Shown: in pieces, positions 25,669-26,577 of the stretch
Numbering within the stretch: position 1 is the first letter of the stretch
Layout: every line of letters starts with the position of its first letter
Notes under the pieces: generated by a model
Told to the model about the DNA's origin: nothing
Seen by the model: only the letters and a program-made list of their open reading frames with translations
Databases searched by the model: none
Made by a program: the position numbers and the translations under genes
DNA from: a virus
Lineage: Duplodnaviria > Heunggongvirae > Uroviricota > Caudoviricetes
Length of the DNA: 35,235 nt
Virus record (IMG/VR): IMGVR_UViG_2850756110_000003
Strand: one strand, 5' to 3'

Positions 25669-26577
25669 TTAGCACAACGGGCGTACAGCTTCGCGCATCC
25701 CTTTTTCAAGAATCGCATCCAGGTCATTAGCAACCTGCTCGACCAGACCAGGCACTTGCGTCAGGTCCTGCTCCCAGTGGTCTTTTTCTGCCAAAACAAT
25801 CGCTACCAGTTCCGGGGTGCCGATAACACGGTCACGATGCTGGCTCCAGAGTTGCTGATAACGTTCCAGCCAGTGTGCATCGTCCTGTACCGGATATGTT
25901 TCTCCGTTACGCTCACCGCGATAGAAGGCAATCAATGCCGTTAATGCGAAAGTAAGGCGCGCCGGAAGTGTGCCGTTTGCCTTCTGCCCTGCCAGCAGCT
26001 GCGGCAGGATGCGGGTGCGGAACTTGGTCATACCGTTGAGCGCGATAGACAGCAGCTGATGCTTAATGTACGGGTTACGGAAACGCCCGGTGACTGCACT
26101 GGCGAAAGATTCCAGTTCATCACGAGGCAAATCCAGTACCTGAATAATTTCTTCGTCGATGGCTTTTTCAACGAATGCGCAAATTTCAGCATCGTTCATC
26201 GCTTCACCTACGGTATCCAGCCCTGCCTGGAACGCCACCGGCACCAGCGCGGTGTGCGCACCGTTGAGGATTGCCACTTTGCGTTCTTTATACGGTTTAA
26301 TATCGTCAACAATCAGCACATTGAGCGGATATTTGTCCAGGCGCAGCTCAGTCGCTAAGGATTTCGGCCCCTGAATCACAAACAGGTAAAAGTGTTCAGC
26401 GGTGTCGAGAAAACCATCGTGATAACCCAGTTCTTCTTCCAGTTTAGCCACTTCACCACCCCGGTAGCTGTCGGTGTTGCGCGTCAGCTTAGGCAGAGTG
26501 ACGGACGTCACATTACCCACTTCGTTTTCACCATCCACAAACAGCGTAAAAAAGCGAAGATGTTTTGGCACAGCCAT
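25669..26577 (-). pseudogene. uxaB: Chimeric ORF: P2-like tail tube (FII) N-terminus (about 42 codons, roughly 26455-26577) fused in frame to the C-terminal part of altronate oxidoreductase UxaB (roughly 25669-26454)
   Basis: [41 protein letters not shown] | [32 protein letters not shown]...[13 protein letters not shown]...[21 protein letters not shown]...; the second part is the UxaB C-terminus (memory). Start overlaps the sheath gene stop by 1 nt. Confidence 0.8.

Follow-up and report, generated by a model that had tools for sequence, protein, structure and literature searches.

Within the 35,235 nucleotides (nt) of DNA analyzed here, to which we refer as the window, one 302-amino-acid (aa) open reading frame (ORF) at 25669-26577 (minus strand) begins as the N terminus of a phage tail-tube protein and continues as the C-terminal part of the host enzyme UxaB. 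This locus raises the question of whether prophage and host DNA have truly been joined in one gene and, if so, by which route and with what consequence. We consider it highly probable that the ORF is a chimeric pseudogene, formed by an IS-independent, short-homology deletion in the decaying genome of Shigella dysenteriae, and that it represents an ordinary genome-decay scar and not a working gene.

Anatomy, parentage, and distribution of the chimeric ORF

Residues 1 to 41 of the chimera are the N terminus of a P88-like (Xuanwuvirus, P2-related) tail-tube protein, encoded by codons 1 to 41 of the tube (FII)-derived part (26456..26577, minus strand). Residues 42 to 302 are UxaB residues 223 to 483, and the uxaB-derived part (codons 42 to 302 plus stop; 25669..26453, minus strand) extends to the native stop codon. 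Between the two parts lies the crossover point, a TG common to both parents (26454..26455, minus strand). The limits of all three were set by three-way DNA comparison, together with Pfam and P88 identity for the tube part and with Pfam and NCBIfam for the uxaB part.

A sequence-only reading of this DNA had proposed that a tube gene start is fused in frame to the 3' two-thirds of uxaB. Three-way DNA comparison and the Pfam domains bear out the direct joining of prophage and host DNA in frame, but the proportions have to be corrected: 261 of the 483 UxaB residues are retained (54%), and the tube contributes 41 N-terminal residues by DNA comparison, not 42. The start was correctly placed 1 nt into the sheath stop codon, since the chimera ATG and the sheath TGA share an A in TGATG (26579-26575), a 1-nt overlap that is also native in phage P88. 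An SD sequence, GGAGG, is located at 26588-26584, 6 nt 5' of the chimera ATG. The other end was likewise correctly described as reaching the native UxaB C terminus and terminator; the native uxaB intrinsic terminator, a 9-bp stem with a T-run (25641..25662, minus strand), directly follows the chimera stop codon.

In Pfam, the tube domain is incomplete, with model positions 1 to 42 of 165 of Phage_tube (PF04985) matching chimera residues 4 to 44. Mannitol_dh_C (PF08125) is complete (model positions 1 to 189 of 190; residues 92 to 289; E = 5.8e-58). The Rossmann domain PF01232, which spans residues 16 to 263 in intact E. coli UxaB, was not detected in the chimera by Pfam, and only the last ~40 residues of that region are kept. 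The NCBIfam tagaturonate reductase model NF002969 matches residues 40 to 302 with model positions 220 to 482 of 482, i.e., not at full length. Its score of 391 bits nevertheless exceeds the cutoff of 359, which is why databases call the chimera a tagaturonate reductase; the source records name the exact 302-aa protein "tagaturonate reductase [Shigella dysenteriae]." The score for the tube model TIGR01611 was 30.9, below its cutoff of 102.75. Because UxaB residues 1 to 222, and with them the dinucleotide-binding domain, are lost, the chimera as predicted from its sequence cannot act as tagaturonate reductase. It is a clean case of fragment misannotation, in which the enzyme name has been given to a protein without the cofactor domain.

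On the host side, the uxaB part is 97.5% identical to E. coli uxaB at the nt level, and chimera residues 42 to 302 are 98% identical to E. coli UxaB residues 223 to 483 (5 substitutions in 261 residues). Like E. coli UxaB, a tagaturonate/altronate reductase of the long-chain mannitol dehydrogenase family, the chimera retains Mannitol_dh_C in full as well as the native stop codon and terminator; unlike the enzyme, it is without residues 1 to 222, the Rossmann NAD-binding domain, and the FGEGNF glycine motif. By comparison with the intact E. coli locus, yneE and tam on the uxaB side are the native neighbors. On the phage side, the N-terminal 124 nt are identical at 122 positions (98.4%) to both P88 and the prophage of E. 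coli ETEC4088, and over the phage part with the adjoining 2.6 kb, the identity to Escherichia phage P88 (Xuanwuvirus, Peduoviridae), which is viable and related to P2, is 98%. P88 FII and the intact ETEC4088 prophage share with the chimera its first 41 codons, the SD sequence, and the way in which its start overlaps the sheath stop by 1 nt. In contrast to P88, the remnant has lost genes E, E', T, and U together with the entire left part of the phage, and the chimera cannot be a tail tube because it holds only 41 of the 170 tube residues.

The sequence-only reading had itself raised two doubts, namely, that the junction could be an assembly artifact or that the N terminus could be a native UxaB variant of this lineage. 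We give almost no credence to either, and no evidence in favor of them was found. The identical junction is present in PacBio-level complete genomes of separate projects and in many short-read assemblies, and the N-terminal 124 nt, with their 98.4% identity to P88, are positioned behind the sheath gene just as they are in P88. Sequence comparison also showed that the N terminus of intact UxaB is unrelated to that of the chimera.

The identical ORF, in an unchanged context, was found in at least 12 complete genomes and ~196 collection blocks, named Shigella dysenteriae; records of the exact protein amount to 196 blocks and 156 contigs. In every context retrieved via the chimera, the sheath protein, or YneE, the order was the same: pheT-ihfA-hok-IS2-ogr'-cargo-IS1-gpD-sheath-chimera-yneE-tam-IS4-lambdoid tail genes. 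The carriers differ by no more than 5 single nucleotide polymorphisms (SNPs) across 5.6 kb. Among 5,426 complete RefSeq E. coli genomes, the junction occurred in none, and uxaB sequence was present in 5,421. The junction is thus fixed in a young S. dysenteriae clade; since none of these E. coli genomes has it and all S. dysenteriae genomes seen have it unchanged, it is a possible lineage marker. An exact 30-nt junction scan of a genome-contig collection gave 0 matches, a result that is uninformative, as the junction is abundant in other collections; this collection presumably merges Shigella into a single E. coli species representative (GTDB). The literature on uxaB pseudogenes in Shigella and on the carrier accessions yielded no description of the chimera, and its only relevant item was a serotype: carrier CP026832 is S. 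dysenteriae 14 ATCC 49346 (PMC10132075).

The breakpoint and its surroundings

The alignment of the junction with intact uxaB and a P2-family tube gene, which had been suggested for finding the exact breakpoint and any microhomology, was performed as a three-way in-register alignment of the window, intact E. coli uxaB (locus L001), and the intact tube gene of an E. coli prophage (locus L002). From the tube side, identity to the tube gene reaches 26454; from the uxaB side, identity to uxaB reaches 26455, which leaves a 2-nt parental overlap (TG), and both parents are collinear up to the breakpoint. Three-way comparison with both parents revealed no filler bases, IS end, or att-like sequence there. 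The TG overlap is one end of a 17-nt patch (26454..26470, minus strand) in which the parents, aligned in register, are identical at 12 of 17 positions (tube, CAGCTACCGGGGTGGTG; uxaB, CGGCTATCCGCGTGATG). Identity of at least 12 of 17 was reached at 1.8e-4 of the ~8 million position pairs between all of uxaB and the phage tail operon, and since the patch length of 17 nt was picked post hoc, the true P value is higher than this figure. The exact 2-nt TG overlap, taken alone, is not significant. Considered as a whole, the patch still argues for homeology-guided illegitimate recombination over a random join.

We propose that short imperfect homology guided illegitimate recombination without an IS, by which tube codon 41/42 was joined to uxaB codon 222/223. 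The prophage parent is P88-like and is situated at its normal site beside ihfA. Recombination would have removed the 5' half of uxaB, which encodes the NAD-binding Rossmann domain, and in the same event all prophage DNA beyond the tube gene start; the in-frame nature of the join would be happenstance. The event is old enough for fixation in the S. dysenteriae lineage and is one of several scars in an IS-scrambled region, its net effect being the loss of uxaB and the loss of the phage.

On the prophage side, an intact P88-like relative in E. coli ETEC4088 adjoins hok-ihfA-pheT, and the right end of the remnant lies at the same hok-ihfA-pheT site in the relatives of the window; hence, the prophage side has kept its original location. 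The sheath-tube-E-E'-T-U block is natively divergent from gpD in P88, and so the order of sheath (minus strand) and gpD (plus strand) in the window is not itself a rearrangement. An inversion of the sheath-to-U block relative to gpD was rejected on the same ground.

On the host side, tam, yneE, and the uxaB remnant form an island of 2.66 kb with an IS4 junction at its left and the IS-free phage junction at its other side. Apart from the uxaB remnant, the island (23800..25472) consists of tam (23800-24554, plus strand) and an intact yneE (24558-25472, minus strand). The adjoining IS4 copy (22374..23799, minus strand; 1,426 bp) has no target-site duplication, in contrast to a second copy at 20393-21818 with the 13-bp duplication CGGAAATCCGGTG. 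Its end has taken the place of ATGT, the initial 4 nt of tam, so that tam is without a start codon; several gene callers still give a 252-aa tam product despite the missing start. The IS4 copy at 22374-23799 marks the border of an IS4-mediated rearrangement.

The DNA to the left of this IS4 copy belongs to the tail half of a lambdoid prophage that carries ipaH. The same prophage is located at yecD in the ipaH-carrying, probably enteroinvasive E. coli FDAARGOS_943; in the window, it is joined to ydfI through IS1. Farther left are ydfZ, ydfH, ydfG, dcp, IS1, mgtT, and an IS3-family element, followed by gapC', cybB, and trg.

Several other lesions were observed in the lambdoid prophage. The ipaH effector gene (3414-4538, plus strand) is 5' truncated and encodes 374 aa versus 583 aa in a sister genome and FDAARGOS_943, and the tail-tip gene J (7305-10783, minus strand) is split into ORFs of 791 and 368 aa. 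The insertions of an IS110-family element (17769-18943, plus strand) and of IS4 (20393-21818) in the tail/head-tail genes are each found in some sister genomes only. Among the loci compared, both occur together in CP026805 only, and they could be usable as sublineage markers.

Deletion versus exchange

The sequence-only reading had attributed the junction to a deletion. This fits the gene orientations, both of which are compatible with loss of all DNA from uxaB codon 222 to tube codon 42. One simple deletion in a K-12-like gene order does not hold as the whole story, given the multistep IS patchwork, which was traced here in 10-kb flanks. On the K-12 map, essential genes lie between uxaB and ihfA; a simple deletion would take these genes as well, which speaks against our preferred explanation in its plainest form, and earlier rearrangements must therefore be assumed.

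The same observation can be turned in favor of another route. If the junction arose by reciprocal exchange, or by excision and reintegration (translocation), the DNA between uxaB and ihfA, which must exist somewhere, would have been moved and not lost, and a complementary junction of the uxaB 5' part and the tube 3' part would survive elsewhere in the genome. The heavy rearrangement of the region is consistent with such a history. The predicted reciprocal chimera (351 aa; UxaB residues 1 to 222 plus tube residues 42 to 170), however, was not found in a collection of 5.8 billion proteins, a search that covers called, cluster-representative proteins only. The best matches of the reciprocal query proved to be UxaB proteins of the ordinary kind, the top one scoring 569 bits at 70% coverage and none exceeding 72% coverage, and the combination of PF01232 and PF04985 was absent among them. 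The absence of a reciprocal product from this collection favors deletion over exchange, though it is not proof, and we regard exchange or translocation as improbable.

A 224-aa UxaB fragment cluster (P0036), which ends two codons past the junction, was examined as the missing half and was rejected. It derives from an IS3-family insertion in an unrelated E. coli, on a contig that matches O111 and bovine-associated E. coli strains at 100% identity; we take the element to be IS629-like. A resemblance of the IS end to the tube sequence at the junction was also considered and was rejected, given that this tube sequence is native to P88. The insertion follows uxaB codon 224, 5 nt from the Shigella breakpoint (L035 10001-10701, Logan SRR6954241), and the fragment cluster represented by the SRR6954241 contig has 339 members. 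The closeness of the two sites is probably a coincidence, but it could also be a hint of a fragile or preferred site in uxaB.

Decay, expression, and function

The chimera lies at the edge of a prophage that has decayed. The sheath (FI) ORF (26577..27761, minus strand; 394 aa), the first cistron of the late operon, is intact by the ORF list and P88 comparison. On the far side of the divergent intergenic region, gpD (baseplate hub; 27919..29028, plus strand) is a pseudogene: its codon 41 (28039-28041) is an in-frame TAA in place of the TCA (Ser) of P88. A frameshift in gpD was rejected, the lesion being an in-frame nonsense codon; the 306-aa "Phage_GPD" ORF in databases starts at an internal TTG of this gene. 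The late-activator gene ogr (33309..33545, plus strand) is interrupted at its 3' end by IS2 (33516-34788): residues 1 to 66 of 86, including the zinc-finger cysteines, are intact, and the C-terminal 20 are replaced by IS2 read-through. With the gpD nonsense codon, the truncated Ogr, an IS1 beside the cargo gene, and all genes past the tube start gone, the remnant is unable to make tails.

The large cargo gene between gpD and ogr (30156-33173, plus strand) is IS1 flanked and split into ORFs of 637 and 367 aa. Its intact form in ETEC4088 (L002 22824-25943) encodes 1,039 aa and is annotated as "MFS transporter"; the cargo gene had no match in Pfam, NCBIfam, or PADLOC. It occupies a hotspot at which P2-like phages typically carry cargo, and it may thus be an accessory or defense gene that is as yet undescribed.

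The chimera had been suggested to be driven by a phage tube promoter and RBS. In P2-type phages, sheath and tube are cotranscribed from a single Ogr-dependent late promoter in front of the sheath gene, and no separate tube promoter is known in these phages. A promoter of the tube's own is therefore not supported; expression of the chimera would need the sheath late promoter and the damaged Ogr activator, and the product, if made, would be encoded by the second cistron of that operon, behind the sheath gene. Only the region upstream of the sheath gene is present, i.e., the sheath/gpD intergenic region (27762..27918), which is identical to P88 at 161 of 164 positions and is the only location available to a phage late promoter for the chimera. 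The consensus of the late-promoter dyad is TGT-N12-ACA. An exact copy was found neither in this region nor in its P88 counterpart, and one late-promoter-like site with a single mismatch is present at 27858-27841, centered 88 nt before the sheath ATG. A sigma-70 scan returned 4 promoter-like sites versus 1.8 ± 1.4 expected, and hence no clear excess over chance. Given the SD and the coupling, any sheath transcript could plausibly be translated into the chimera.

Several features could be taken to mean that the fusion is expressed, from the sheath late promoter by residual Ogr or by read-through, as a 302-aa protein composed of a tube N-terminal strand and the helical UxaB C-domain, with a retained or new role. 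The ORF is intact in all genomes seen, is coupled by a strong SD and the 1-nt stop/start overlap to a sheath ORF that is itself intact, and has kept the native terminator; these points count against our main explanation. The promoter region is nearly that of a viable phage, and the zinc-finger part of Ogr is intact. Against expression stand the missing NAD-binding domain, the loss of the 20 C-terminal residues of Ogr, and the decay or deletion of the remaining prophage. The sole postfusion aa changes replace ancestral residues, and a join would be in frame by chance in one-third of cases. Moreover, the sheath ORF is equally intact, though useless without a tube, and intactness here therefore reflects youth and is not evidence of selection. 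On balance, we infer that the chimera is without expression or function, and we consider an expressed fusion with a role unlikely. More doubtful still is the further proposal that it is cotranscribed with the sheath gene and translated into a stable protein with a clade-specific role, for instance, in binding hexuronates or partner proteins, or one that acts as a clade-specific antigen. If this were true, the expressed chimera would be a documented new gene born from a phage-host deletion junction.

Substitution patterns are consistent with the pseudogene reading. The dN/dS of the uxaB part versus E. coli was 0.11, and that of the neighboring yneE was 0.09; the former was rejected as evidence on the chimera, as it is like that of yneE and reflects prefusion history. 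Within the clade, postfusion changes comprise two nonsynonymous ones (K34N and Y141D) and one synonymous one. Ancestral K34 and Y141 are kept in sister genomes, N34 and D141 occur in the sublineage of the window, and the synonymous change is found in one other genome. A nonsynonymous-to-synonymous count of 2:1 is the neutral expectation and gives no sign of constraint, with numbers too small to test. Since the clade shows so little diversity (at most 5 SNPs in 5.6 kb), this count and the intactness of the ORF carry almost no weight either way.

The significance of the locus is modest: it is one more scar of genome reduction in Shigella, by which hexuronate catabolism was lost and a prophage died. 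The protein sequence is already public under its misleading enzyme name, and the type of junction is of a known kind. Its value lies in being a well-resolved natural phage-host junction that appears IS independent and homeology guided. Most other rearrangement borders in the window are marked by IS1, IS4, or IS2; the chimera junction, unlike these, is IS-free and keeps the reading frame across the phage-host boundary. In comparison with junctions known from short-homology illegitimate recombination, it is likewise IS-free and without filler, with a 2-nt overlap in imperfect homology. Its setting is also that of the chimeric pseudogenes of Shigella genome decay, namely, an IS-rich, rearranged genome from which catabolic genes have been lost.
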